Assembly: GCA_027923505.1 (NCBI GenBank)
Contig: BROI01000008.1
Span: 372,001 to 436,000, forward strand
Length of the DNA: 64,000 nt
From: Mayamaea pseudoterrestris
Lineage: Eukaryota
Direction: 5' to 3'
The notes below the pieces were generated by a model, which saw only the letters and a list, made by a program, of their open reading frames with translations, had not been told where the DNA came from and made no database searches. A program made the translations under genes and the position numbers. Shown here one piece after another: positions 1 through 39,115 of the stretch; the first letter of the stretch is position 1, and each line of letters opens with the position of its first letter.

Positions 1-2405
1 GGACCAAGAACAGCAGTCCTTCGCTTTCTCTCAATCTCATCAAGTCGTGCACCACTCGACTCGTCAGGATCCAAAAGCGACTCAAAATAAAGTGTGATGT
101 CCCAAAGAGCCGCCAGTGATCCTTCTTTTCCCTGGTCTTCACAAGCAGCGACTGCACGACGAAGGAGGGCTCGAAGGTTAGTAGTATCTCCAAGCTCCAA
201 TAACAGCTGGGCATAGCGCAACACGTATGGTGCCTTTGTCAAAAAGTTGCCATGTTTCCTCAAACCTAGCTCATAGGTTCGCCCTGCAACTTCGCGTGCT
301 CCATTCATGCGATGTTCCATTGTAGCGTGGGCCGCGTAGAGATGCCACGTAACTACGCCTCTATATGACGCCATGGAAGTTGCCTCGCCCCTACCCATAA
401 CTTCCAAAAACTGCACTGACTTTGCGAGTCCTTCCTTTCCAATACTAGAATCGAGCCGATTGGTAATTGCCCATTTTTGCTTTTCGGAAACTTCATTGTG
501 AGATTGATTAGCCACACCATCCCCTCCCTCCTGGGCGGCGTCGTCCTTAAATGTCGCCGCTTCTTCCACGTTGCCTTTAGCGTTAGACGCAACATTAAGC
601 GCTAGTACTCGTCTCGCTCTCGCAAACACTGCCCGCGCCTCCTCGGCGCCTTTGTATCGTCGCACCAACTGTTGACATATGACGAACCCAAGCGTACTCG
701 GACATCTTGCTAGCAATCGCTCCATAACATCAATACATTCCATAGAGTCGCAGGCCGACAACTCTACGATCTGCGCCTCTGCATACGCAAGCAAAGTTGA
801 ATCTGGTATATGACCCTGGGCAAGCTGTAGAACTGCAATCGCTCGTTCTGGACTCTTGCTTTCAGCACCGGACAACTCCCACATGCCCCATTGATACCAG
901 CATTCGGGATGCCGCGTCATTACGCAAATCATTTCCTTGTATGCATGCCGTATGCGTTGCGCCGATTCGGAGCTTGAAAGTCTCTCCGGATTCGTTCGTT
1001 GGTAGGAAGTCCGAATTTTCCAAATGCGGAGCAGCTTATACTCATCTTCCATCTTTGCGGCGTAATCGTCTTCATTGTCGATTACTGGATCCGTCGCGAG
1101 TCGATCAAGATGTAAGTCTCCAGATCCACCGTAAACCCGATTCCTTTCCAAGTAAACGTTCCGCGCATGCTGATACTTTGGCGCAAAATCTTGCGTCAGT
1201 GCCTGGGCCAAAGCCTCGCTCTGAGTGCGCTCAAACGCTTCGTACTCGTTCCAAAACAGGTCCAGCCCCACCATGGGCAACACAACGGCGCGCTGGTAGA
1301 CGGATCGCAGTTGGACCATTTGCTGCTGCGCCAAAACGTGCTGCATGCCGGAATTCTGATCCACCGTCAATGTCCACGACCGGACAAACGCCAGGTATTG
1401 TTTCCACAAAACGTGATTATTGTGCGCAAATCCCGCATTTTGGACGGCCAAGTCAAATGCCCTTGTCGTCGCTTCTCTCACAGCTATGCGTTGGGCATCG
1501 ACATCATCCGTCGACGCCAGACACTGTCTTCGCGCTTGGCGCGATACGGCGAATATGTATACAAGCCAAAGTTCAACACTCCAAACACAAACCCCTCCTA
1601 GCGGCGAAGGCTTATCATCTTCGGCACCACCATCATCCATTTCGACGGCATGTGATTCATTAGCATTTTCTGCAGCCACTTCTCCATCCAAGTTATATCC
1701 CAGCGAATGGCGTAGCAAGTGTAAAAGTTTCAGTTCACATTGCGCGGCGCGTTGCGGCGACACCAACGATGGAACATGTTTGTGTTCGACCGTCAAGCTT
1801 CGTCGCGCCCATGACTGTTCGTCATCCATAAGTACATGCAAATCGTAGTCATCATCACCAGGCCTTGCCGTCTGCGTCCAAAGAAGCTGTGCAACGCGTA
1901 CTTGATACTGAGCCGCGTAGGGAAACGTTTGGAGCAAATATCCATAGCAGCTTTCAATCCAATCAAGCTGGATCTCGCGTTGGTGAGCGTCATGCGAAGA
2001 TAGTGTTGCTGCTGCTGACTCTAGAATCGTTCGGTAGCATGACTGCGCCTCAGTTAGTAGTGCCTGCCATGCTTCTACATCGCGCCTAGGTTGCAGAGTG
2101 ATGCGATTCAGGGCATTCTTGTATCGCGTCGACGTCGGACCAGAATTATGTTGTGGGTACGGAGATGGCGTTTTAATTGGAGTTATCAAATTAACAATCT
2201 TCTGCTCCTGATGAAGACTGATATTGTTATCGAATGCAGCCGACGCCAAAGGAGCAGCAGCAGGAAGAAGAGGCAAGGCTTCATCAATGTCCATGGGCTC
2301 GTCATCTCCGCTCAGCAGTATTGATGCCGTTGTTGCAGCAGTCGCAGTAGCACCCATAGCATCGTCGCCTTGCTTTTTCTTTGTTCGTGGATCAACGCGA
2401 CTCAT
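1..2405 (-). CDS. CSTF3: Cleavage stimulation factor 77 kDa subunit / RNA14 / Suppressor-of-forked HAT-repeat protein (3' end runs off window)
   Basis: Not in the ORF track because no stop falls in the window. Manual translation of both ends: ATG at 2405 (MSRVDPRT...) is in frame with ...TWHLYAAHATMEHRMNGAREVAGRTYELGLRKHGNFLTKAPYVLRYAQLLLELGDTTNLRALLRRA, typical of the CstF77 C-terminal HAT repeats. Confidence 0.8.
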   Translation of the reverse strand, partial: MSRVDPRTKKKQGDDAMGATATAATTASILLSGDDEPMDIDEALPLLPAAAPLASAAFDNNISLHQEQKIVNLITPIKTPSPYPQHNSGPTSTRYKNALNRITLQPRRDVEAWQALLTEAQSCYRTILESAAATLSSHDAHQREIQLDWIESCYGYLLQTFPYAAQYQVRVAQLLWTQTARPGDDDYDLHVLMDDEQSWARRSLTVEHKHVPSLVSPQRAAQCELKLLHLLRHSLGYNLDGEVAAENANESHAVEMDDGGAEDDKPSPLGGVCVWSVELWLVYIFAVSRQARRQCLASTDDVDAQRIAVREATTRAFDLAVQNAGFAHNNHVLWKQYLAFVRSWTLTVDQNSGMQHVLAQQQMVQLRSVYQRAVVLPMVGLDLFWNEYEAFERTQSEALAQALTQDFAPKYQHARNVYLERNRVYGGSGDLHLDRLATDPVIDNEDDYAAKMEDEYKLLRIWKIRTSYQRTNPERLSSSESAQRIRHAYKEMICVMTRHPECWYQWGMWELSGAESKSPERAIAVLQLAQGHIPDSTLLAYAEAQIVELSACDSMECIDVMERLLARCPSTLGFVICQQLVRRYKGAEEARAVFARARRVLALNVASNAKGNVEEAATFKDDAAQEGGDGVANQSHNEVSEKQKWAITNRLDSSIGKEGLAKSVQFLEVMGRGEATSMASYRGVVTWHLYAAHATMEHRMNGAREVAGRTYELGLRKHGNFLTKAPYVLRYAQLLLELGDTTNLRALLRRAVAACEDQGKEGSLAALWDITLYFESLLDPDESSGARLDEIERKRRTAVLG

Positions 2406-25755: not shown

Positions 25756-26136
25756 ACGTCCTGCAGGAACGCTCTATGAGTATATACTTTGATGGTTTTC
25801 CATCACCAACTTGCGTTTTGACGTTGATGGATCCAAAATCTTGGAGAACTGACGTACTGACATGAAGCGGCACTAAAATCTCAGTTATGTCGCTGCGACA
25901 TCATCGCGTTGTCCGAGGTTTATCTCGCTAGTACAGAGGTATGGAGGAAGTCCTGGCAGAAGCATTGAAAATTTCGATTTTTAATAAAGCCCTAGGCAAT
26001 ATTGGATGTAAATGTCATAAAGAATCCTGCCCCTAACATTGTTTTTTCTACGCGTGAAGCTACCGATCTTTTGTGTAGACATTCATTGCGTTTTGATTGG
26101 GTTTAGGTAAAAACGTGCGCTGCGATTGGCTCTATT

Positions 26137-26172
26137 GTTCGCTTGTATCGTTCGCCTAAGGAACAAGCGAAC
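26137..26172. other. Perfect 10-bp inverted repeat (hairpin), 16-nt loop
   Basis: GTTCGCTTGT (26137-26146) and ACAAGCGAAC (26163-26172). Confidence 0.8.
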
Positions 26173-26255
26173 CTAACCGAACCATGAATACTCGATATTA
26201 TTGCCTTCATATTTCTTGATCGTGGAAAACACTCTGATTGGCGTTTTCTGAACAT

Positions 26256-26370
26256 ACATTGTACAGTGTGTGGCAGTGTTGTAATGCATGTTATGTCGCT
26301 TGTGCTGTATTTAACTCACATTGTACTATATGCGGCAGTGTTTTAATGCAACTTGTGTCGCTTGTGCTGT
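26256..26370 (+). repeat. Imperfect tandem repeat, 62-bp period, ~2 copies
   Basis: ACATTGTAC..GGCAGTGTT.TAATGCA..T.TGTCGCTTGTGCTGT starting at 26256 and 26318. Confidence 0.85.
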
Positions 26371-26444
26371 GCTTCCATCGTGTCCCTCATTGAGTACGTT
26401 CTTTTTCTGGCAGTGTCGTTTGATCCATCATTGTATTTCCTCTT

Positions 26445-26721
26445 TTAGTTTTGCAGTGTCTTTTGGCCCATGCTGGTATCTCTTGATTGATGAGTTTTAG
26501 TATCGCGTGTTTCCGTATGTTGTCAAGAACGTTGGAATGGCTAATATAGAACGCGATGCACGCGTTGCCCGCATCAGAAGACCTCCGTTAGTTTTGCGGT
26601 GCCTTTTGGCCCATGCTGGTTTCTCCTTGATGAGTTTTAGTATCGCGTGTTTCCGCATGTTGTCGAAAACGTTGGAATGGCTAACATAGAACGCGATGCA
26701 CGCGTTGCCCGCATCAGAAGA
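26445..26721 (+). repeat. Tandem duplication of ~135 bp (26445-26581 and 26588-26721) covering the upstream region and start of the small DAR-family ORF
   Basis: Both copies read TTAGTTTTGC.GTG.CTTTTGGCCCATGCTGGT...GAACGCGATGCACGCGTTGCCCGCATCAGAAGA. Confidence 0.9.
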
Positions 26722-26829
26722 TTGCAGGAGGCCTGCGAAGAAGCGGAGGATGAGATTGTGTGGAACGCTGGAAACTTCTACAATGACAATTTGACGAATG
26801 AACTGATTTTGATTGACATTCGGCTATAG
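26677..26829 (+). pseudogene. Truncated copy of the island orphan 'DAR' family (MANIERDARVARIRRLQEACEEAEDEIVWNAGNFYND)
   Basis: Near-identical to the 5' part of ORF 32363-32824 on the opposite strand, then diverges and stops. Confidence 0.7.
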
Positions 26830-26839
26830 TACATGTTAT

Positions 26840-27499
26840 CTACATATTATTTCGAGCAACAGTTTCGGGTTCGTTGCCAACTCTTGACTGTGCTTCTTCA
26901 ACTCTTGCCGAAAACGCTTTGACTTCGACAATGGAACGGAATTTATATCCAAACTTTGGAGAATAGTAGAACCTGTCATATTGACGTTTCTTGCCATACT
27001 TTGCACGTCGTCGTTTGCATATTTGTATCCAACCGATTGCCCAATTCATCGATCGATTATTAACGGGACAGGAATATTGTACTTTATCCCAGTTTTTCGT
27101 TGACTCTAACGACCGAAGTAGAGTTCCATAGTGTTTCACTCTTGTTCCGTCTTCTTGCATATGAGTCCGAAACAACACGTATTCGTTGTTAGCCAACTCC
27201 ATGCCAAAACCCATTTGCACATGTACCTCCACGCGCGCGCATACCTCCTTGAAGTACTTGTGAAGGTTGTCGTGTACGCCATCCATCACTGCTTGAGTTA
27301 CGTATTCTGCGTTGAAGTTAGTTCGTGAGGGAATCATGTTGTGCAGACTTTGCGATCCGTGTCTTGTAACTGCTTGGAGCAGCGACATGTTATAAACTTT
27401 GGACACTGCGAGACAGAACATGTAATTAATTGCAAAGTTGGGTAAGTGTCCGTGGACACAACATTTAGTAGCAGGCACTTGCGCGACTCGTAACAGCAT
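26840..27499 (-). CDS. MBD-like family protein, copy A
   Basis: WAIGWIQICKRRRAKYGKKRQYDRFYYSPKFGYKFRSIVEVKAF matches the MBD consensus GW..R..G..D.YY.SP.G.KFRS..E. Shares upstream C.A.S...N..L and V(Q/R)MGF blocks with paralogues. First ATG at 27499 (the ORF-track start is TTG). Confidence 0.75.
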   Translation of the reverse strand: MLLRVAQVPATKCCVHGHLPNFAINYMFCLAVSKVYNMSLLQAVTRHGSQSLHNMIPSRTNFNAEYVTQAVMDGVHDNLHKYFKEVCARVEVHVQMGFGMELANNEYVLFRTHMQEDGTRVKHYGTLLRSLESTKNWDKVQYSCPVNNRSMNWAIGWIQICKRRRAKYGKKRQYDRFYYSPKFGYKFRSIVEVKAFSARVEEAQSRVGNEPETVARNNM

Positions 27500-27513
27500 C
27501 TTTACTTTGACAG

Positions 27514-27846
27514 TCAATGCAGGTGGTTGACTTGCGAAGGTAGTGAAAGGTTGAATTCGTCAACTCGTTTATATTGAAATGTGATTTTCCTTGGTCGAGA
27601 AAAACTCAACGCATAATCGTAGACATTGATATTTTTGTGGCGCTGGTTATCTAAGAGTTCTTTTCCTGTTAGCGTTGCGTTGTTCGCGAGATTGATATAT
27701 GTCACCATCTGGTATATATCCGATATCGAGCGTTGGGTGTTGCTCGTTGCCAATATTGGCAATATTGTTTGACGTGCTTCCGTTTTGGTGAAGCTGTGAG
27801 CGACCACCCGGCGCGCGATCCCGGCCGGATTCGCTAACGGATTCAT
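27514..27846 (-). CDS. Hypothetical protein (110 aa), island orphan
   Basis: ATG-initiated ORF abutting MBD copy A; may be its frameshifted N-terminus. Confidence 0.4.
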   Translation of the reverse strand: MNPLANPAGIARRVVAHSFTKTEARQTILPILATSNTQRSISDIYQMVTYINLANNATLTGKELLDNQRHKNINVYDYALSFSRPRKITFQYKRVDEFNLSLPSQVNHLH

Positions 27847-27926
27847 TTACAGTTGGGTCGTTTTTTGTTGGCGAACCGTGATGCGATCTTCACATCTCCG
27901 TGTAAAGTCCATTTGGCTCGTCTTGT

Positions 27927-28706
27927 TTGAATGAATCGTCTCTGATGCTTCTTGGAAGAGATCACTCATGGGACAGCACTTCGGTTTCGGCTGAAGAGTG
28001 TGAAGAGCTGCCTCTTCTGTTGGAATGGTTTATAGTGCTGTTGGCTGAATCTAAAGTATTGAATCACAATCTCGTCGAAGTAATTCGATCATCGGGTGTA
28101 AACAATGTGGTGACGCTTGCGAATGACAATGAATCAGTCTTCCAGGAAGGAGGTGATGCATTGACCGACTTCATATTCTGTATTGTTGATAACAGGTTTC
28201 GAAGTCGGTTTGACGCTGTGTATGAGCGAGCACACGAACTCCTGCGCATGGGGTATACGGTCGATAAGGAATTCGAAAAGCCGTATATCTCTCGATTCTT
28301 TCGTTATCTTCCCGATGGTGAGTGTAAAGAGAGATATCGCACGCTGCGAGTAATTATGGGAAGCCGGTTGCAAGAATCGTGTGGAAGTAAGTTCTTCGCT
28401 CCGGTCGACTGCAGGAAAATGACTTGGGAAAGAGGATGGATACAGTCTCGTGTTCAGCGCGTCTCGCGAAATGGCGAAAGGCAAGCTCGTTTCGATACTT
28501 ACTATTACACGTATCATTATGGTTTCAAGTTTCGATCCATTCCGGAGGTGAAGAGATTTTTGAGGTTGTACCATCGGTACGGCGGGGAACGTAATCCTGA
28601 AAGGTCGGAGTTCGAGGCACGCAGACATATTGCGATATCGCGCCGTCAAGAAAAGGATGCTAAGGCTCGACGTAAGAGATACCAATGGGTCGACGTAGTT
28701 AAGTAA
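27927..28706 (+). CDS. MBD-like family protein, copy B
   Basis: WERGWIQSRVQRVSRNGERQARFDTYYYTYHYGFKFRSIPEVKRFL; upstream LAESKVLNHNLVEVIRSSG and LRMGY blocks. Confidence 0.75.
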   Translation: MNESSLMLLGRDHSWDSTSVSAEECEELPLLLEWFIVLLAESKVLNHNLVEVIRSSGVNNVVTLANDNESVFQEGGDALTDFIFCIVDNRFRSRFDAVYERAHELLRMGYTVDKEFEKPYISRFFRYLPDGECKERYRTLRVIMGSRLQESCGSKFFAPVDCRKMTWERGWIQSRVQRVSRNGERQARFDTYYYTYHYGFKFRSIPEVKRFLRLYHRYGGERNPERSEFEARRHIAISRRQEKDAKARRKRYQWVDVVK

Positions 28707-29014
28707 TCTGCAACATAGAATGTGTTTCTATTGTTATTTATCTTGTAGACGGTCGCTTGTGGTTTCGCCATTCGTGTATCGTGTTGCACCTGTGGCCGTA
28801 CTGTGCCGACCGTGCGCGGGACAACGCTTTTGTTAAGCGTGTGAACTGAAAAGGACTTGTTGTTTGACACGTTAAGGGGTTTGACGGTTTCGAGAAAGAT
28901 AAATTCCGCTATGCAGCGATTTTCAAACGTCAGCACGCTCGCGTCGCATAACGAGAAGGAGTCGTTTTGCTGGTACGTGATGGCGAAATTTGAAATTTTG
29001 CCTCAACGCTCGAT

Positions 29015-31366
29015 ATGTTTACTTGTAGACGGCTATGTATTCTTACTACATATGTGTTTGTCTCTGTCATGCATATCATATTTGTTTTACGTCTATTTGC
29101 GATAATGCGTCTCGCAATACCATCGTTGGAAACCAAACGCGAACTTTTATCCCGAGCTTCTCAGGAGCTTGAGAGTTATGTCATTAAGGAGCCCCAGACT
29201 AAAACTCTTCATGCAGCTTTCTGCTGTGTTTGTGATGGTACTCCAGATGAGGCATATTGGCATAAAATGGTTTCTGTTACCAGAGTTGCGTCGCTGTGTT
29301 CGACTGCCAATATGCGAAAGGTTGATCTCTCCGACGTTTATCCGATGGACTTATTGAACGAATACACCGCTAAGCATCAAGCATTGAAGGATTATGTGTT
29401 ATCACCCGATGCCTACGTGAACAAAAGGAACGAGATATGCGTATGCCGTAAATGTCTTGTTGACCTAGAGACAAACGCAGAAGAGAGGAAAGCAAGGCGG
29501 CGGCCGCCGCGTCAATCAATCGCTAATGGGTATGTTATTGGCCATGAGCCTGAAGAGCTCAAGTGTCTCAATGAAGTCGAATTGGCTTTAATAAGTAAGG
29601 CGAAGCTCCATTGTCAGACATGGGTGTTTTTTGGAGGCTGTCACAAACAAATAAAGGGATGGACGACGCTTTTGAAGAACCATCCTGAAACTAACGTTGC
29701 TAATATGATGCAGATTCGGGATTCTGGCCTACACGGAAGACTCCTTGTGGTTCTATGTGGACCCTTCACTTCAACGCAGAAAGCCAAAGTGTTGCAGAAG
29801 ACCCGTGTTGATCCGGAAAAGGTTTTAAATGCCTGGAATTGGTTAAAGGTTAACAATTTTCGCTACCGTGACCTTCATATTCCCGACCCTGACAGCCTTC
29901 CGGTACCAAGAATTGTGGAAGATAAAGTAGAATGGCAAAGGAGTGTAAGCGTCGATGTTGAGAACGAAATGAGCATCACCCATGTCTTCCCGGATGTTAC
30001 TCTTCCTGGACGCATGAATGGAACGTTTCAGACTCAGGATGAATTCCGCAAGTATATTTTGGAGCATAACGGAGGGAATTACGAGGCGCAGATGCATGCT
30101 CGGCCTTCTGCTGACCGTTTCATGGATTTTGCGGGAGACACCATTGCAGATGCCTTTGTTTTACAGTTTCCTTACGGATTTACCGGTCTAGCCGATGACC
30201 CAGCTGTGCTGAAGTTGAAGAAGAGAAAAAGCAACACGCGATACTGCGGTCGAAAACGTATCGATGTTTACAAGAAGTATCTTCGGCATCGCAAATCTGT
30301 CTTTCATGGTCCAATGTTTGTCTTGGTAATAGAGAATCTTATTCTCAAGGAAGCCATCTTCAAAAGTGTTGTGATCCAGTGTAATATAAAACAAACGGAT
30401 GGTCGTTCCATTGCGGACAAATTCGGTACCATGTCCACCAGCCAGTTTGAAAAGGCGATTACAGATTGTCAGCAACAACACGGGGTTAACAAGCGAAACA
30501 CTACAGAGCATCGTTTTCTGCGCAGTATAACAGCGGTGTGTGAGAATCTGCCGCATACAAACGAAGCATCCCAGGATGCTCGCAAGGTATACTTTTCTTT
30601 CCTCATGAAATTCGGGATGCCCGCAATCTTTCTAACCGTTTCACCGGACGATCAGCGTAACTATCGCATTGTTGTTTACGCTCTCGGCAAAGAAAACTAT
30701 AATCCAGACAGTACAGTTAACGTGGCGAGCCTTACTGACCGACAGATTATCGACAATTTTCGGATGCGTCAGGATATTCGTTACGAGCATCCCGGGTTGT
30801 GCGCGGAGGAATATGAACGCGTTGTGAAAGCTGTTGTTAGTCATTTGTTCAATTGGGATATAGACAATCAGTGCAGTAAGGGAATCGGAATTTATTCTAA
30901 TCAGAGTATCGATGAAGTAATTGACAGAGTTTGTAATTTCCGCAGCCCATGGTTTCGTATTGCTGTCGCACGGCAATTCCGCTACATGACGACCCATGTC
31001 AGAATGGGCTTTGAAATGATACACGATGCTACTTCCGACTCATACTTTTTAGTTCGACGTTATAAGGTTCCTGTTGTCGAGTTACGCTGGCCGAGACTAG
31101 CTACAATCGAAAAGTCTCCACTAGGTGGGTCGATTACATTTCCACTTAGATTGCTTGGCTGTCGCAAAGAATGGGGTATTGGTTGGACGCGTTTGCAGAT
31201 ACCGGGTAATGATAAGACGCCGCGACGCGATTGCTTCTTTTCGCCCAAATTTGGATTCATGTTCATATCGATTGATCAGGTTAACTTCTTTGTAAGCCTT
31301 CTCGATCGATTCGAAGGGAGTGACTGGGAGATGGAGGAGTATGCTTTGTCAAAAGTCTGTGAATAG
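29015..31366 (+). CDS. Helitron Rep N-terminal region (DUF6570-like + Helitron_like_N) truncated and fused in frame to MBD-like copy C
   Basis: CCVCD...CRKC..L...P..SIANG..IG..PEEL..L..VE..LIS; KVLNAWNWLKVNN..Y; QFPYG..G; LPHT.EA....R; GMPAIFLTVSPDD (Rep motif 1). After KGIGI (~30893) it switches to VRMGF...WGIGW...FFSPKFGFMFISIDQV. No HUH motif, catalytic Tyr or PIF1 helicase. Confidence 0.8.
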   Translation: MFTCRRLCILTTYVFVSVMHIIFVLRLFAIMRLAIPSLETKRELLSRASQELESYVIKEPQTKTLHAAFCCVCDGTPDEAYWHKMVSVTRVASLCSTANMRKVDLSDVYPMDLLNEYTAKHQALKDYVLSPDAYVNKRNEICVCRKCLVDLETNAEERKARRRPPRQSIANGYVIGHEPEELKCLNEVELALISKAKLHCQTWVFFGGCHKQIKGWTTLLKNHPETNVANMMQIRDSGLHGRLLVVLCGPFTSTQKAKVLQKTRVDPEKVLNAWNWLKVNNFRYRDLHIPDPDSLPVPRIVEDKVEWQRSVSVDVENEMSITHVFPDVTLPGRMNGTFQTQDEFRKYILEHNGGNYEAQMHARPSADRFMDFAGDTIADAFVLQFPYGFTGLADDPAVLKLKKRKSNTRYCGRKRIDVYKKYLRHRKSVFHGPMFVLVIENLILKEAIFKSVVIQCNIKQTDGRSIADKFGTMSTSQFEKAITDCQQQHGVNKRNTTEHRFLRSITAVCENLPHTNEASQDARKVYFSFLMKFGMPAIFLTVSPDDQRNYRIVVYALGKENYNPDSTVNVASLTDRQIIDNFRMRQDIRYEHPGLCAEEYERVVKAVVSHLFNWDIDNQCSKGIGIYSNQSIDEVIDRVCNFRSPWFRIAVARQFRYMTTHVRMGFEMIHDATSDSYFLVRRYKVPVVELRWPRLATIEKSPLGGSITFPLRLLGCRKEWGIGWTRLQIPGNDKTPRRDCFFSPKFGFMFISIDQVNFFVSLLDRFEGSDWEMEEYALSKVCE

Positions 31367-31629
31367 ATATATAGACTCAGCTGCTATGTACGCGGTTTTA
31401 CTAGGATACTAATATACGTCCTCATTTTCTTGGACTTGGTTTTATTACATACGCAAATTTTGGGCCGTTGGAGCATGACTGACCGAAAATTTGCCGTTGG
31501 GTGTTAGCCAAATATTGGTGTGAAGGCCTTTGTGTTGATGTTATGGTCGTTCGAACGACTGAGTGCGTTGAAGGTGGACAGAGCTGACATGCTCATTAAC
31601 TGGCTGTTTGTACATACCCCAATGCTACT

Positions 31630-32307
31630 ATGAGAGTTAAACTTATAAAGGCGGATCCGCAAGTGTGCGATTTTAGATTCGAGGGCTATGTAAATAGTTT
31701 GATGTATTGCCAAGCTCTCTCAGATACAACCAATGAAGGACTCTTTGAAACGATTGAAAGATGCGGAGTGCGTTCTTTGAAACAGAAGATGCAATGTTTG
31801 CCTGCCAGGATGGATCCGTCTAACATTATTGACTATTTGCTTGGGGATAAATACCTGACTCGTCGTACGGAATACGATATACACTACCGTGAAGTCTTGT
31901 GTTGTGTTCGGATGGGTTTCGTGGTAGAGATAAAAGGGAAAAAACACACATTTATTCGAAGGTACGATAATCCTATTGGAGGCGCTAATGCTCCTCATAT
32001 AAAGGCGATCAAGTATCTGCAAGCAAATGCGAAGACATATCAGATACCATCATCAAGAACCAATTATCGTCTGCGTCACTGGGGACCAGGATGGATACAG
32101 TTCAATGTCCCTCGCGCCAACGCACCAAGAAAAGTCGACAAGTACTATATCTCACCAAGATGCGGGTTCAAGTTCCGTTCTGCGGTCGAAGTGACAAGAT
32201 TCGTTCAGGAAATGGGGAAGATAGATTTTCACGATCGCAGTCGCGCTGAGATGACTGCACGAAATCGTATCAAGTCGGTTACAAGTGCATCTACACGATA
32301 CGCATGA
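31630..32307 (+). CDS. MBD-like family protein, copy D
   Basis: WGPGWIQFNVPRANAPRKVDKYYISPRCGFKFRSAVEVTRFV; upstream YCQALSDTTNEGLFETIERCG and VRMGF blocks. Confidence 0.8.
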   Translation: MRVKLIKADPQVCDFRFEGYVNSLMYCQALSDTTNEGLFETIERCGVRSLKQKMQCLPARMDPSNIIDYLLGDKYLTRRTEYDIHYREVLCCVRMGFVVEIKGKKHTFIRRYDNPIGGANAPHIKAIKYLQANAKTYQIPSSRTNYRLRHWGPGWIQFNVPRANAPRKVDKYYISPRCGFKFRSAVEVTRFVQEMGKIDFHDRSRAEMTARNRIKSVTSASTRYA

Positions 32308-32362
32308 TTCTATACGTCGTGTTTTATATTTACGCGCTAAAACGGCAAAGTTAATAGTGCAT

Positions 32363-32824
32363 TTAACGTTTCCATTCCGTGTCGTATTTAAGCAAGCGAC
32401 CCTCGTCTCCATCCCACGTGTACTCTCTACTGATGTCATCGTTGTCCATAAGCGGGAGTAAATACCAATGACTGCCTTGGCTTCCTTCACATACGATGCG
32501 ACGATACAATTCCGGTTCCGTTTTGTCTAGCATTTCGTTCACGGCTGCAATGAAATCATCTCCTGTTCCAGGCATCTCGTGACGGATGAAGTTGTATAGC
32601 GTCACGAGCTTGGCGGCAGATCCACCGTTCTGCATCCAATCATTGCAGGCCCCCAGCATAATGTCCAAATTATGCTCATCCTCATACAGCATGTACTGGG
32701 TCTCATCATTGTAGAAGTTTCCAGCGTTCCAAACAATCTCATCCTCAGCTTCTTCGCAGGCCTCCTCAAATCTTCTGATGCGGGCATCGCGTGCATCGCG
32801 TGCATCGCGTTCCGTGTTAGCCAT
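32363..32824 (-). CDS. Island orphan 'DAR' family protein, apparently full-length copy (153 aa, acidic)
   Basis: MANTERDARDARDARIRRFEEACEEAEDEIVWNAGNFYNDETQY...; the 9-nt unit GCATCGCGT occurs three times. Confidence 0.65.
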   Translation of the reverse strand: MANTERDARDARDARIRRFEEACEEAEDEIVWNAGNFYNDETQYMLYEDEHNLDIMLGACNDWMQNGGSAAKLVTLYNFIRHEMPGTGDDFIAAVNEMLDKTEPELYRRIVCEGSQGSHWYLLPLMDNDDISREYTWDGDEGRLLKYDTEWKR

Positions 32825-33074
32825 TGCAACGTTTTCGATACGAGTGAAGTTGTGCACGCTTGTGTGATCTTATAACCCTTCCCTTCCTTCCCGTATACGT
32901 ATTTTTGAACGTTTGCATGGATATAATATCGTCGACGAATTCCCTTAACGCTCAGCAATATTGGCGATTAAGTGCGTATCTGCATGATTCGCTGCAGTAT
33001 GTGCTTTGATGTTTTGATATTCTATCGGCGGTTATCAAGTCAAAGGACGAACGCTTTACCGCACGATGTTATAT

Positions 33075-33238
33075 TCAATCGAAATAGTTAATAACGACAA
33101 CAAGCTGTACGCATGCATCTCGTTTCCGCATGTTTCCAGCGTTTCGAACTATATCCTCCACTGCTCCTTCCCATGCCTTTACGAGTTTTCTGTTGCGCGT
33201 ACGTTGCGTGCATTGCGTGCGTTTCGCGTTAAGTCCAT
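33075..33238 (-). pseudogene. Frameshifted diverged copy of the 'DAR' family
   Basis: MDLTRNARNARNVR in one frame and RNRKLVKAWEGAVEDIVRNAGN in another align to MANTERDARDARDAR and RIRRFEEACEEAEDEIVWNAGN. Confidence 0.6.
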
Positions 33239-33312
33239 TGGCTTGTTTCGTAAGGTGGTACGTCAATATAATATAAGCTATCAGCAAGGTAATAGTAACA
33301 ACAACATGCGTT

Positions 33313-33654
33313 TTATTCTGTATTTGCCAATGGTTGTTCTACGAAAACTCTTATTGTGAACAATTCGCAGTTCGACAATTCCTTGCACTTGATTATGATT
33401 GTGTAACATTTCCGGCATAACGGGCAACGAGGACATCGTCTTTTCGTCGTCTCTGTTTCGCTCCATTTTCTAATGCAGCGAATGCAAAATTTGTGTTCAC
33501 ATGAGTTTACCATTGAACGCTGTCTCTCTGTCATCGAGCCGTGACAAATTCCACAGTCATTCATTGCTGGATTTGTAGCGATAATGAAGCGACAACACAG
33601 CAAAGATTTGAAGATAATGCGAGTGGCATGACACTGGGATGCGATTGAGCACAT
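33313..33654 (-). CDS. Small C3HC4 RING-finger protein (likely start 33564)
   Basis: CGIC-x11-CEHKFCIRC-...-CPRCPLC. Confidence 0.75.
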   Translation of the reverse strand: MCSIASQCHATRIIFKSLLCCRFIIATNPAMNDCGICHGSMTERQRSMVNSCEHKFCIRCIRKWSETETTKRRCPRCPLCRKCYTIIIKCKELSNCELFTIRVFVEQPLANTE

Positions 33655-33669
33655 CTCGAATTCCAGTTT

Positions 33670-33711
33670 GCCGAAAAAGGGCTATTGTTGTTCTGGATAG
33701 CCTTTTTCGGC
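33670..33711. other. Strong hairpin, 15-bp stem with one bulge
   Basis: GCCGAAAAAGG(G)CTAT...ATAGCCTTTTTCGGC. Confidence 0.85.
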
Positions 33712-33837
33712 GACGACGGAAAATGTCACTCAACGGTAGGCTCCATCCAGCTTCATCCCTGACGTTCTATCTTTGATGATGAATGCCTTATTATTGTAGA
33801 GTTGTTGGACGACAAGCAGTCACAAGCATTATTCTGA

Positions 33838-34101
33838 ATGTCGCCAGTTGAAATGAGAGTAGACGAGCCATCTCACATCCCACGAACGGTGACTGGGGTA
33901 CAAGGAGGAACTCGTTCTGCTTTTGTCGTGGATCAAGTTGCTGTCATGTCGCCTTTTCTGGATGTACCTTCCAACAACACTGGGACGCGAAGTACACAGA
34001 GTCGGGAGCAAGGTGGTTACTGGAATGGCGATCATTGGGACATGAGACTGCTGACAAAGTCTCCGTGTTCTGTTCTTATTCATTTTGAAGGGTTCAAATA
34101 G
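33838..34101 (+). CDS. Hypothetical protein (87 aa), island orphan
   Basis: ATG-initiated ORF filling the gap between the hairpin and the MazG-like gene; no motif recognised. Confidence 0.3.
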   Translation: MSPVEMRVDEPSHIPRTVTGVQGGTRSAFVVDQVAVMSPFLDVPSNNTGTRSTQSREQGGYWNGDHWDMRLLTKSPCSVLIHFEGFK

Positions 34102-34138
34102 ACTGCAGTTGTAAAGTTAGCATTTATGATTAGTAAAT

Positions 34139-34801
34139 TCATCTGTTTAGCAGGCGTACAGCAAGTAATAGAATATCGGCCAATTCGTATCCTGCTTTGA
34201 TAATGTGGTCGACAGAGTATATCCTGGACGATTCGTTCTCGGGTAACCAGTTGAAACAGTCTGCAAATTCTGCAACTTCGTTGTCGATCGCGGTGACTAG
34301 ATTCGCAACTGTATCGAACTTGGTAAAGTCTCGTTCCTTGGCGAATGTTGTTGATATTTCAGTCAATTCGCTCACGATGCTATCGACGTGTTTTGTGTTA
34401 CTTGAGAAAGGTTGACGAGTATAACTTTGATGCACTCCATCAGGACGTGTGTCCACTGTGACTCCTGTTCTGCATGAAAGCATCGTGTACTTATCAATCC
34501 GATGCGGTGTGGTGTGAGTCATTACTGGATACTTTTTGGAATTCAATATCGACTTATCTTTCGCCAAGATTGAAAGGTTAACTTCAAGCAAATCTGCGGC
34601 GATGCATGTCTGGTGAATGATAACATCCGTGAACCTGTTCAGCAATGTGGTATTCATGTGAATCGCGTTCCGATTTGTAATCATATATTCGAAAATGCCC
34701 TTGGACGCAACTTTCATGCGAAAGTAGATGTCTCGAATGCATGCGTCGTCTACCGTCCTAGTGATGCATCCTTGCAATGTATGAGGGTTCATGTCTATCA
34801 A
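34139..34801 (-). CDS. MazG-like / DCTPP1 (RS21-C6)-type dCTP pyrophosphatase domain protein with unknown N-terminal half
   Basis: FAKERDFTKFDTVANLVTAIDNEVAEFADCFNW...GYELADILLLAVRL matches F..ERDW..F..P.NL..A...EV.EL...F.W...ELAD.L.Y..RL; the ExxE...ExxD metal ligands are retained. Confidence 0.75.
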   Translation of the reverse strand: MIDMNPHTLQGCITRTVDDACIRDIYFRMKVASKGIFEYMITNRNAIHMNTTLLNRFTDVIIHQTCIAADLLEVNLSILAKDKSILNSKKYPVMTHTTPHRIDKYTMLSCRTGVTVDTRPDGVHQSYTRQPFSSNTKHVDSIVSELTEISTTFAKERDFTKFDTVANLVTAIDNEVAEFADCFNWLPENESSRIYSVDHIIKAGYELADILLLAVRLLNR

Positions 34802-35167
34802 GTAATCGTGTTTGACCGTGATGTTGTGAGGCTTCTGTGCGAAAGCTAACTCGGGATAATTCGCGCCGGGAAACCGTTGAAATAAATTTTTCGCAGTCGT
34901 TGAATTCTCCTTGGCCGAAATCGTCTGAGTCGTTTTCCCAGACGAAAAAATCGTAGATCCGTTGAGTGTTGTAGAACGTTGTTTTGGTCTTATATTTCTG
35001 AGTCGGTTAGTAAACGGATGTACGATTACCGAACAGGTCGACGAAAGTTAAGATCCGTATATGTTGTCGAGTCTTGCACTGAATATTTGGAGGCCAAATA
35101 TTGATTAAATTGGTGATGTAAGTACAGCAAGTTGCGAGGAAACATCTCATAAAATCAATCCTGAAAC

Positions 35168-35925
35168 ATGACCAAGACGACCCCTGCCAAGAGTAAAGAG
35201 GAGACCAAAAGCCCTACCAAGGCGAATTCGTCCCCAGTGGTCCGGGCTTCTCCACCCCGCAGCAGCAACGTCAAACAAGGAAAAGGAACGGAAGCCAGAC
35301 TTGTAACGCACCCTGTCCATCCGGATCTTGCGTTGCAGATTATAACCTACGAAGATAGCACGGAACGAAAGGACGCGTATAACTTTCCATTGAAGGATGG
35401 CATCAAGAATCCGCACAAGCTGTCGGCCCGCGCGAAAGAAATCGATCTCAAGGTTTTCAACCGTCGTGTTCCGGGAACGAGCGAGAGTATGTTGCAGTTG
35501 AACACCACGTCTGGGGAGGCATACCCAAGAGCTGTGTTTGTTCGTAAATTTCCGGCACCTCCGACACCAGCGGAGCGAATGGAGACGATGGCGATCATGG
35601 AAGAAGTCCTGCGTGGCGATAAGACGAGCAAGTACCCACCTCCCAATATTCGCAAGATGGACTACAATCCCACAGATCGGGTTCGACCACTTGATGATTG
35701 TAAGCTTTCTTACTTGTTCAATGTTTGGTATGGTTATCATGTACTTACAAATATCCATTTATAGTTTTCCAGGATAACACCATCGAGGCCTTGATCAAAT
35801 CCATGTACGACTTTGAGGTCCTCAACCATGACTTCGCCACCTCCTATCCTGAATTGTTGGGTGGCATATTTGGTCGTCCTACTGAGCATCGTTTTGCCAG
35901 AGACCTTGGACGTAGCGATGACTAA
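35168..35925 (+). CDS. Spliced island orphan protein (intron 35700-35764)
   Basis: A GTAAGC...TTTATAG 65-nt intron joins ORFs 35168-35764 and 35725-35925 in frame (LDD|FFQDNTIE); Ser/Pro/Lys-rich N-terminus. Confidence 0.7.
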
Positions 35926-36061
35926 GTGTCTACTATAGTATATAGAGAGTGGAGATATAAGATAACGACGATTATAAATTATCACTTTCTTTCAAACATA
36001 GACTAAAGGATTGTCACTCGCTCCTCTTGTTCGCTCTGGTAACGTAACAGCCATCGAATGA

Positions 36062-38818
36062 TTACCCGCATTTTTCCAGACCAACGACAACGAATTCTTT
36101 AAACATTCGATAGACCGGATCCTCGTCGGTGAAAAAAACATGATGCAACTTGGGTACCTTCACCGCATTTGTAAACGAATTATCGTCGTTTGTTGTGCAT
36201 TCCTTCAAGCATGCCATAGTAGCATTCAGGAGTTGTTGGTATGCTGCAATGATCGGTTTCTCCACCCGTTGGTCACTATTGAGCGCATCGAATGCAATCT
36301 TGAAGAGCAGCTCAGCTGTCATGCTCGGACTCATAGTTTCATGCTGATCGAAGGCTGCCGTGAACAAGTTCTGGAACATAAGAAATACTCCACTTTCTGG
36401 GAAAGTGGCAATGTCGTTCGTCATTATCGCGATGTTGAATACAAACCAATTTCTCATGCTTTCGAGGTCTTTGGTAGTCGCGAAAAGTTTGTTTGCCGAC
36501 CGTTCAAATCCACCCTCTTCTAGTTGCGCAATTTCGTCATCGGAGCACACGGACGCAAGTGCCTTGAATGCCGCCTTGGAAATTACTTGCATGGGTGTTT
36601 CACCAGCTTTAAGTTTTGCGTCCTCATGATTTAACTTGACACTTTTCGCAGGTACTGGAGAGGATGCCGATTCGTGCACGGAAAGTGTTTCGTCGTGTGT
36701 TCGCTTTCCATTTGATTGGTCTTTCAGCGACTGACAGTATGTACTGTCCGGAGGCACACCCGCTTGGCGTAAAAGCAATGAAACAATAAAATCGGTACCA
36801 AACTCCTTTGCGATTGTGTCGCCAACTTCGTCTCCCACAGGAAACACTTTTTGCAACACTTCGAATAGTCCGAGGATCTGTTCCTGACGAGACATATCAA
36901 TCTTCTTCTCCACGATAGTGTCAAGCTTTGCCTCTGTAAATTGTAAACCTTTGCCTCCATCGGCAACGATTATAAGTTCGTTGCGCTGATCAGAAAAGGA
37001 CGAACCCATGACGTGAATTATAATATTCGCACATAAAGAAGAGGCCGTCATCATCTGAGCTGTCGACTTGGTGATCACATTACAAAACCCAAGCTTATTG
37101 TTACAATGGCTTTCCAAGTTGCTGTATTGATTGGCAAATAATGGCTGAGAAGAAATGGGTTAGTTATTACGAACGGGACATGATTAGCACCGCAAGAGCT
37201 GCTTTCCACTTACATCTTGGACGATTGGAGCATATGCCAAGTGGCACAGCGCACGAGCCGAAGAACGACGTTTGAGATAGTACCATGCGTTTTTGTTGAT
37301 GTTGGTGCATTTAGGATCAAATGCTGCACTTATGAAGTTACGAACGATGCATTTTGCGTTCCTGGTGTTGTCATAAAAACGTTCTCCAGCTCCACCGTTC
37401 CCAAGGAGTACGATAGTGGCGATCGACAAAAATAATGCCATTATGTTCCCGTAGGAATCCAAACGTAAGAGAACATCAGCCTTTGAGTCCAGGATGTTCA
37501 CTTTCTGCTTGTATTCATATGCGTCCGGAATGATACTAGTGGCGTACGGAATTGCCAATCCTTCTTTAATTGCTGAAGTTGTCCAAAACTCAATCATGCA
37601 GACCAAGTTGTCGCAATCATTAATCAGATTTGCTGCGGCTGACGAGCAGATAGACAATGAGCAATAGTTGATGGAAGAATACAAGATGAACAGCTGTGCA
37701 ACGAGCTGCTTACCAATAACTCTTAGTGTATACTTCATCAATATATCACTTCCTTTGTCGAATCCAAGAAGCGGCACATCAAGGTCGATGCATGACGCAA
37801 CATACGCCACAAACAGACCAGAAATTGCTTTGTAGAATTTCTTGTGCTTGATCATTTCGTCTTGCCAATACATAGGCTCCTTCGATTTATTGATGAAATC
37901 AGGGGATGTCGCGGCGGATCTTAATTCCTTGAAGTCGAGTTTAGCCTTTTCAATATGTTGCGAGTAGGATTTGTAGGTTTCCAGCTCGGGAAGTGCCAGG
38001 AAGGATTCCATGTTCTTCGAAGCAAGATGAGTCTCAATCTCCTCGATCTTTTCGGATACTCTCATGTGCATCTGCTCTTCTTCATCTTTAAGGTCAAGGT
38101 ATAAATAATTGTCTGACAACTTGTTTTCCAGCTCGTAAAACGGATTGCTACTTTCGGTTGTTGTTCGTTTTGATTTATTCAAGCCTCGCGTGTTTATAGA
38201 CTTGGTAGAAGGCAGGACACGATACAATTGCGTAGACGGACGAGTCACTCGAGACGATTGCGTTCGAGTCGATACCTGGTGCACATGCCGAGTACGGGCG
38301 GTGGATTGATGTGTGGCTTCGTCTTCATCGGTATCGGGCTTGTCGTCGATGTCGTTATCGTCGGAATTTGACGAACTGATTGGATCGGAATCAAGATTGT
38401 TGGAATCTGAAGCACTGCTATCTTCATGAGCAGAATGCGTTGAATCAGATGTTGCGTCCGTTGCATTCGATGGAGTGCGTGACGCCGCTCCATTCCCCAT
38501 GTCTGTCGTCTCGGCCGCATGGATACTGGAGTCTTCTTCTTCGTTGCTTGGAGGCACTGGAGCGTTTCGGAAACCGGCTACCACTTTGTTGAAGATAGAA
38601 TTAATCATGGGGTCTGCTGTGGGATTCTCCGCGACGAGCAATTGGTTTGACACTTGTACGATACGTTTTGCCTTCTTACTCTTGTTTTTTGTTGCAGTAA
38701 TTCGTTTTGGCATTATATGATGGTTATAGCGAAAACGACGAGCGTGGAGAGCGTTGTCTATCGTAACGAACGTTCGAGATTTGTCACCTCTCCCAGTCCG
38801 CTCGTTCCATCTTGGCAC
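36062..38818 (-). CDS. Large spliced island orphan protein (~850 aa; intron 37145-37213, probable in-frame intron 37639-37713)
   Basis: A GTAAGT...CTAAC...TTCTCAG intron joins ORFs 37184-38818 and 36062-37117 in phase 0. NLS-like KNKSKKAKR, acidic disordered tract, helical-looking remainder. Start may be MPKRIT near 38713. Confidence 0.7.
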
Positions 38819-39115
38819 GATTTTTCAGCGAAAGTTTTCGTGGGCGACTGCGGTCATCCAACGGATGTTTCTGACGTCATCGAACATTTTTGTTTAACGA
38901 CAATACCATTTCAAATTAACTGTCAACCCATGTGTAGCCTAGAATTAAAATTTACTGTAATCCTATGAGTAGTAAAATCAAGTATTCAATTACATCCACA
39001 ACCATAAACCGAGCCCCCAAGACAGAATTCCGGCGTTTCGACCATTGCGGCCGATCTGTCGCACCATTTGTTTTGTCTTTGTGAACGACCAAAGTAAAGC
39101 ATCGGTCGAATTAGT

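Follow-up and report, generated by a model that had tools for sequence, protein, structure and literature searches.

A Helitron-borne DCTPP1/MazG-like pyrophosphatase of two-part diatom build in Mayamaea pseudoterrestris, with aspartate at the position of a proposed cytosine filter

A 64,000-nucleotide stretch of the Mayamaea pseudoterrestris genome (contig BROI01000008.1, positions 372,001 to 436,000; hereafter the window) contains a gene for a genuine member of the DCTPP1/MazG-like pyrophosphatase family. The gene is cargo of a Helitron, and the element lineage of the enzyme is shown to be under purifying selection. At the position of DCTPP1 His51, a proposed filter for cytosine, the protein carries aspartate, and the DNA building block that such an enzyme destroys may not be the one destroyed by the host enzyme. 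The reading that we prefer, as the leading one but tentatively, is that of an active dNTP pyrophosphatase, carried as transposon cargo, whose pocket has been retuned to bases with a protonated N3 (dUTP/dTTP type).

The element and its recognizable parts, other than the pyrophosphatase gene itself, are the following (window positions).

25912..39027, plus strand: non-autonomous, internally deleted HLE2-type Helitron of 13.1 kb that carries the gene, delimited by shared ends with T on both sides
25911..25949, plus strand: left end, 39 nt, 92% identical to C5 and also found at C1, with a 5-bp terminal hairpin read by eye
26840..27499, minus strand: MBD-like cargo gene (Pfam MBD, E 2.8e-4, 20.9 bits, just below the cut-off)
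27945..28706, plus strand: MBD-like cargo gene (Pfam MBD, E 8.4e-5; dN/dS 0.38 against C5)
29015..31366, plus strand: truncated RepHel with DUF6570 and Helitron_like_N and no helicase (Pfam; comparison with C5)
31630..32307, plus strand: MBD-like cargo gene (Pfam MBD, E 1e-7; dN/dS 0.18 against C5)
33313..33654, minus strand: RING-finger cargo gene beside the pyrophosphatase gene (Pfam zf-RING_2, E 4e-7)
38983..39028, plus strand: right end, 46 nt, 93-94% identical at C5, C20 and C1 and 80% identical at C4

An earlier note on this DNA, made from the letters alone, had described the gene as element-borne and adjacent to MBD genes. Comparison between loci bears out the first point: the gene lies inside a Helitron whose ends are shared at four loci. 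Both ends recur at C5 and at C1 and the right end only at C20, and beyond the shared ends the flanks of the loci are unrelated. The same right end is found at C8, C5 and C20 with different flanks and with the gene block ahead of each. These shared ends argue that the stretch between them is a single element. The 25.9-39.0 kb part of the window is collinear with a 34.3-kb block at C5 (402,351-436,646), which contains a 9.4-kb tandem duplication, and C20 is collinear in the right part. The RepHel of C5 is intact (1924 aa, with DUF6570, Helitron_like_N and PIF1). DUF6570 was recognized with E 1e-18 in the window and 1e-17 at C5, and this domain is a marker of HLE2 elements (PMC11417382). A T stands outside the left end at all three loci and outside the right end at four of the four loci read; such T-T insertion, together with DUF6570, fits HLE2. 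As for terminal inverted repeats and a 3' stem-loop, only a 7-nt inverted match between the ends and the 5' hairpin were noted, both by eye; a repeat search of each end (seed 6 for the hairpin) did not report the hairpin and gave nothing convincing, including no proper terminal inverted repeats of 12-16 nt.

The MBD neighbourhood is there as well, with three MBD-like genes nearby that score 20.9, 22.6 and 31.9 bits against the Pfam cut-off of 21. At 29015-31366, a 9.3-kb deletion has joined the front half of RepHel in frame with the end of a different cargo gene, one that is similar to the MBD genes at its C-terminus. The C5 element (L008:4214-9994 and L009:264-2086) carries at least six further cargo ORFs without a Pfam match, as well as three tandem paralogues of the window gene at 32363-32824; an inverted copy of part of this last gene, along with short direct repeats, occupies 26256-26786 in the window, inside the left end. 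An 8.6-kb non-autonomous element on C1 (G000:C1:1303401-1312017; L106, L109) has both family ends, the left one 98% identical to that of the window, and is without the pyrophosphatase gene; no long ORF was seen in the part of it that was read. The right end at C4 (G000:C4:636156-636228; L107) adjoins repeated low-complexity ORFs. No copy of the pyrophosphatase gene was found in 10 kb at each of the C1 and C4 ends.

The gene, its parts and the residues discussed below are placed as follows.

34139..34792, minus strand: intronless gene for a putatively pseudo-dimeric, two-part DCTPP1/MazG-like NTP pyrophosphatase of 217 aa (ORF, phmmer, profile matches, AlphaFold2)
34457..34759, minus strand: degenerate N-terminal DCTPP1 unit, residues 12-112, with helices 16-39, 48-68 and 73-87 and no ExxE or ExxD (model, profile)
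34487..34555, minus strand: helix 4 and tail residues K80, N84, K87, Y88, K101 and Y102 (conservation in two-part proteins)
34142..34396, minus strand: catalytic unit, residues 133-217, with DCTPP1 helices 1-3, stopping ahead of helix 4 (structure alignment)
34352..34354, minus strand: S147 at the position of DCTPP1 His38, a small residue co-occurring with Asp51 (row counts)
34313..34315, minus strand: D160 at the position of DCTPP1 His51, the proposed cytosine N3 filter (same codon in all four copies)
34268..34279, minus strand: ExxE metal motif, E172 and E175 (alignment)
34247..34249, minus strand: W182, equivalent to Trp73 (mapped residue, within the predicted interface 181-186)
34175..34186, minus strand: ExxD motif, E203 and D206, the latter equivalent to Asp98, which contacts the deoxyribose hydroxyl (alignment)

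The reading frame extends from the ATG at 34792 to the stop at 34139; the interval first given, 34139..34801, captured the right ORF and set its start too far out, adding three in-frame codons ahead of this ATG. Two sequencing runs, both consisting of contigs of one sample and so not independent support, confirm the gene sequence, with no differences in X1. The DCTPP1/RS21-C6 signature that had been read in the C-terminal part was recovered by phmmer, in which residues 139-214 match human and mouse DCTPP1/RS21-C6 (E 2.5e-5 to 1e-4), and the two motifs read there are both complete (EVAE, 172-175; ELAD, 203-206). Against solved structures, phmmer gave five matches below E 0.001, all within residues 135-214, to human DCTPP1, mouse RS21-C6 and an archaeal pyrophosphatase. 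The protein scores 59.5 bits against a profile of single-domain homologues. For the window protein Pfam reports no MazG family, PF12643 included, even at E<=10, and the catalytic exon of the host gene scores 22.2 bits against PF12643, below the cut-off of 27, because this profile covers parts that are split in these proteins. A word-index homologue search with the window protein as query returned 160 candidates, none of them at E<=0.001. The family assignment rests on sequence, and the structure agrees with it.

The N-terminal 135 residues, described in the earlier note as unknown, proved to be a second, degenerate DCTPP1 unit that retains only helix 4 and the phosphate-binding tail. Residues 50-94 align with the C-terminal third (helix 3, helix 4 and tail) of a profile of 39 single-domain homologues with 21.3 bits, a score that none of 500 shuffles reached (best reported shuffle, 5.4), and phmmer also gave a weak second alignment, of residues 49-105 on the C-terminal half of DCTPP1. 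Among 58 two-part proteins, K80, N84, K87, Y88, K101 and Y102 each occur in 90% or more, and T109 in all 58. Of these tail residues, K80, N84, K87, K101 and Y102 presumably serve the phosphates as in the DCTPP1 tail. Y88 is the equivalent of DCTPP1 Tyr129, which bonds the alpha-phosphate (PMC13291643). The helix 4 and tail that would be expected from a second unit are found here in the N-terminal unit of the same chain, and in the related enzyme MazZ it takes a second chain to complete the pocket (PMC8342488). This arrangement suggests that one chain of the window protein is a pseudo-dimer with one composite site.

The AlphaFold2 model, made with the 58-row alignment, has a pLDDT of 88 and a pTM of 0.87. 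Its residues 126-217 were placed by VIA-align on residues 22-109 of mouse DCTPP1, the top-ranked match (Z 7.9, rmsd 2.7 Å, 85 residues aligned). Foldseek found nothing in the PDB at E<=0.001, yet DCTPP1 chains occupy the top ranks, and in a wide structure search DCTPP1 scored Z 7.1 against 6.3 for unrelated helical bundles, a small margin. A homodimer is also predicted, from runs made without the 58-row two-part alignment: its model score of 0.79 (best control, 0.48) passes a threshold that 21 of 30 solved homodimers but none of 23 monomers attained (17 of 29 and none of 30, respectively, among eukaryotes), a pass that may show likeness only, because the DCTPP1 tetramer has already been solved. 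The runs agree in at least 76% of contacts, with a pLDDT of at least 73. In the predicted interface, helix 162-178 lies antiparallel on its mate, helix 16-39 lies on its mate and residues 181-186 contact residues 164-168. DCTPP1 lends its Trp73 to the pocket of the adjacent monomer (PMC13291643), and the presence of W182 in segment 181-186 is consistent with lending of this type.

The substitutions around the substrate pocket to which attention had been drawn earlier are S147, F156, D160 and L210, at the positions of DCTPP1 His38, Trp47, His51 and Tyr102. Of the Trp47/Trp73 sandwich, the second member is kept (W182) and the first is still aromatic (F156). In DCTPP1, His38 and His51 donate hydrogen bonds to the carbonyl and N3 of cytosine and are hypothesised to act as selectivity filters; U and T, whose N3 is protonated, are not preferred (PMC13291643). 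At the first of these positions, where an orthodox dCTPase has His38, the window protein has Ser147; since His38 is also absent from host-type proteins and from single-domain homologues, it does not define the wider family. At the second, Asp160 replaces the His51 of an orthodox dCTPase in four of four copies, and for this reason we do not file the window enzyme as a dCTPase. No equivalent Asp was found in the available part of PMC5608427.

The survey of position 51 covered 137 catalytic halves, taken from 134 of 151 proteins; P0004 and P0006, long repeat proteins in which one short stretch was matched many times, are excluded from all counts. Histidine occupies it in 53 of 54 single-domain homologues (the remaining one has a gap), in all four full tandems and in each of the 100 top host-type matches, which were obtained with a His-favouring profile. 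The 51 two-part halves are divided between His (28), Asp (17), Tyr (4), Glu (1) and Leu (1), and the 59 rows of the tree set between His (36), Asp or Glu (22, window and C5 included) and Tyr (1). Asp or Glu is thus present in 20 other divergent environmental two-part proteins, a count that overstates independence because the rows are related; the Asp51 set was moreover found with an Asp51 query, which favours Asp51. The residue at position 38 is small (A/S/T) in 19 of the 22 Asp/Glu51 rows versus 1 of the 36 His51 rows. The metal ligands are kept in both groups, with Glu63 in 21 of the 22 Asp/Glu51 rows. Asp51 rows are shorter and faster evolving than His51 rows, the median path to the His rows being 3.8 versus 2.5. 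A quick tree of 59 hand-picked two-part rows (LG+G4, column 51 dropped), which left out the full tandems, most fragments and the long or odd rows P0038, P0083, P0088, P0093 and P0147, has six changes at position 51, at least two of them forced by starred branches; repeated origin of Asp51 is not claimed, because a single Asp51 clade is not rejected (p-AU 0.31). In metagenomes, a 7-row Asp51 alignment recovered 80 loci, 79 with His51 and one with Asp51, and on the 2.4-kb contig of this sole Asp51 locus with context no transposase was found.

Under the reading that we prefer, metal ligands and base pocket would come from the C-terminal unit, and the phosphates would be bound by the helix-4 tail of the degenerate N-terminal unit; two chains would pair via helix 2, restoring the tetramer of DCTPP1 with two sites where DCTPP1 has four. 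In DCTPP1, His51 is a hydrogen-bond donor that selects the N3 of cytosine; with an acceptor, Asp, in its place and a small residue at 38, the pocket would most likely prefer N3-H bases, that is dUTP or 5-substituted dUTP, and perhaps dTTP as well. This preference is deduced from one filter, itself hypothesised in the source paper. Uracil would thereby be kept from entering the DNA made in rolling-circle copying, a role that dUTPases play for retroelements. Family, architecture, cargo status, purifying selection and the substitutions are shown and the fold and dimer predicted, whereas that the enzyme is active, what it acts on and how it serves the element we infer. Against a uracil-type substrate stands the host's own trimeric dUTPase, encoded on C3 (153 bits), which would make a second dUTPase redundant unless timing or place differ. 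Alternatively, the changes W47F and Y102L (DCTPP1 numbering) could have widened the pocket or weakened the activity.

The main rival is that the enzyme is still a dCTP/5-methyl-dCTP sanitiser, whose Asp160 reads cytosine N3/N4 in another way and which, together with the MBD cargo, prevents methyl-cytosine from entering new copies; we regard this as unlikely, although several lines of evidence speak for it. Such activity is the default for the family: dCTP and its 5-substituted forms are the preferred substrates of human DCTPP1, and global methylation falls when that enzyme is overexpressed (PMC4491611). Asp179 of T4 dCMP hydroxymethylase is the determinant for dCMP versus dUMP, so that Asp can select cytosine (PMC6400193). 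Three MBD-like genes ride on the same element, and the host dUTPase makes a U-specific enzyme redundant. However, host-type and bacterial homologues show essentially no variation at His51, the change at 51 is accompanied by one at 38, the other base contact, and the tie to the MBD genes consists in the common element only. Tuning of modified-cytosine pools, the role suggested in the earlier note, is less likely than first proposed because the proposed cytosine filter has been replaced and the host retains its own His51 enzyme.

Retuning to a purine or a damaged base (dITP, dGTP, 8-oxo-dGTP or 2-OH-dATP), with Asp reading N1-H/N2 in an enlarged pocket, appears improbable. S147, F156 and L210 are all smaller than the His38, Trp47 and Tyr102 of DCTPP1, and in MazZ, which has the MazG fold, the carboxylate of D60 contacts the 2-amino group of guanine, its positional equivalence being only putative (PMC8342488); most of the other Asp51 proteins, however, keep Trp47 (15/22) and Tyr102 (15/22). 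It is very unlikely that the protein is a non-catalytic modulator that pairs with the two-part enzyme of the host and alters its activity: a pure decoy would not need the four metal ligands and the tail residues that have been kept across a dS of 0.56, even though the architecture is common to host and element proteins and the helix-2 interface is predicted to be intact.

The origin of the enzyme is best explained by an old capture from the two-part DCTPP1 lineage of diatoms. A search of the genome gave five matches, the four element copies and one gene on C7 that is 30% identical over residues 103-215; a second query led to the same five places and to no further divergent copies. The host gene on C7, unlike the intronless window gene, has two exons around an 81-nt GT-AG intron; in its 273-aa product the parts follow one another as in the window protein. 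Residues 12-214 of the window protein align end to end with a profile of 29 His51 two-part proteins (97 bits). This profile had 633 matches in the protein collection, and among the best 120 of the 633, all 100 that had not been seen before have the tail ahead of the catalytic unit and not behind it; the organisms named among these best matches, Thalassiosira, Cyclotella, Seminavis, Nitzschia, Cylindrotheca and Amphora, are all diatoms. These matches indicate that the two-part build is the standard diatom form of DCTPP1. The diatom proteins (G000:C7, L005; annotated as 'dCTP pyrophosphatase 1' or 'MazG-like') share with the window protein the order of parts, the linker signature and a catalytic unit without a tail. 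Host-type two-part proteins differ from it in having His51, a bulky residue at 38 (mostly Ile), a length of 181-364 aa (mostly at least 235) and slower evolution; the branch of the window protein is very long and without a supported sister in trees.

With this origin, a viral contribution to the island, also raised in the earlier note, loses its ground: the carrier is a Helitron, the two-part order and the linker are those of the diatom host form, and the viral searches yielded no two-part protein. Arrival of a viral or bacterial MazG in a virus-derived island is accordingly regarded as highly improbable, despite the absence of introns, a GC content of 43% versus 48-49% in the flanks and atlas neighbours that are bacterial MazG-like clusters (all <0.9). 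In IMG/VR, the alignment of the Asp51 clade recovered only one locus, a single-domain His51 protein, with no two-part match, and the window protein none; BFVD, a library of viral structures, had nothing at E<=0.001 and PHROGs no MazG match. A match to a 'minor head protein' in PHROGs was rejected as weak (E 0.0046). Intronless His51 two-part genes also occur beside cellular-looking neighbours (L020, L021), and L023 is split at the position of the host intron. The absence of an intron from the element gene therefore says little, and we do not claim intron loss by retro-copying.

Selection was assessed by comparing the window copy with the C5 copy (Nei-Gojobori script). The two are aligned over 217 codons without indels or stops, with dS 0.56, dN 0.14 and dN/dS 0.25 (Fisher p 9e-12), in what is in effect one pairwise comparison, because the C5 and C20 copies are near-identical. 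By parts, dN/dS is 0.24 in the N-terminal unit, 0.69 in the linker and 0.12 in residues 158-217; the other cargo genes range from 0.14 to 0.62, and RepHel has 0.08. The positions mapped to the DCTPP1 site, which include all four altered pocket residues, are identical in 18 of 18 cases, versus 143 of 199 elsewhere (p 0.005). Neither of two possibilities raised earlier, a catalytically dead protein under neutral evolution and a recently captured fragment of host DCTPP1 without selection, agrees with this constraint, the second being contradicted also by the identity of only 30% to the host gene. A dead or neutral passenger derived from the host gene is therefore refuted for the element lineage and as a general account has almost no standing, even with a CGA-to-TGA stop at codon 154 in the second C5 copy (an in-frame stop in one copy of the four), and could still hold for today's non-autonomous window copy alone. 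Between 34894 and 35500 the window is 92-99% identical to C5, versus 71-85% in the flanks, which probably marks a tract of recent conversion or recombination that covers the gene at 35168 and the shared divergent promoter. The MBD gene at 27945 also has a low dS, 0.15.

DCTPP1/RS21-C6 (PDB 6sqw, 2oig and 7mu5; PF12643) is the best match of the window protein in both sequence and structure, with helices 1-3, ExxE and ExxD and the equivalents of F41, F50, W73 and Y129 in common. Unlike DCTPP1, the window protein is transposon-borne, appears to be a single-chain pseudo-dimer with one site per chain, and has S, F, D and L in place of the four pocket residues. By these comparisons it would share the chemistry of DCTPP1, while its place is in the diatom two-part branch. 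The same logic of duplication and loss, and possibly the same substrate, is met in the dimeric all-alpha dUTPases of trypanosomatids, Campylobacter and staphylococcal phage, which are proposed to have arisen when a MazG-like unit was duplicated and fused and one of the two catalytic centres was lost (PMC12524310). In those enzymes, however, the dead unit is C-terminal, whereas in the window protein it is N-terminal, and there is no sequence match: Pfam PF08761 (dUTPase_2, motifs I-V) does not match the window protein at E<=10. By sequence, the window protein is therefore not a member of the dimeric dUTPases, whatever its substrate. In structure, the L. major dUTPase (2yay) aligns within helical-bundle noise (Z 6.2, rmsd 5.8 Å, 104 aligned).

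As an element, the carrier resembles the HLE2 group (Helitron2/Helentron) in its RepHel with DUF6570, T-T insertion and gene capture and differs in carrying whole, selected cargo genes; full-length gene capture by Helitrons has been reviewed as exceptionally rare, and dUTPase domains are known from LTR elements and retroviruses (PMC6431247). Our literature search, mainly of open-access titles and abstracts, turned up nothing on a transposon-borne DCTPP1 or on a two-part (single-chain, one-site) DCTPP1 of diatoms. The gene amounts to a natural experiment on the cytosine filter proposed for His51, in that the swap was made by evolution and kept under selection. DCTPP1 is itself a drug target. 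Should the enzyme be specific for U or T, it would be a Helitron-borne counterpart of the replication-accessory enzymes of retroviruses and LTR elements, and this would point to the quality of the nucleotide pool as a limit on rolling-circle copying; specificity for 5m-dCTP would instead support an anti-methylation toolkit together with the MBD genes. A broader proposal, which we consider doubtful, is that diatom mobile elements have, once or several times, made the host two-part dCTPase dUTPase-like by switching His51 to Asp and position 38 to a small residue; the further 20 Asp/Glu51 proteins would be cargo of other such elements. If true, this would add a third way in which the all-alpha superfamily has come to dUTPase activity and would make a nucleotide-pool enzyme a regular Helitron cargo.

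Other eukaryotic tandem forms of DCTPP1 were also encountered (P0005, P0013, P0028, P0090, P0182 and P0183), in some of which both units are intact while in others the catalytic unit comes first, and the fusion has arisen in more than one way. The metagenomic Asp51 locus mentioned above (L019:247-678, minus strand, and 1296-1940, plus strand), on an AT-rich contig, stands head to head with an intronless, divergent histone H3 gene. This histone has an altered tail and, by eye, a longer loop 1; the locus could be cargo of another element, or the histone could be a CenH3-like variant.
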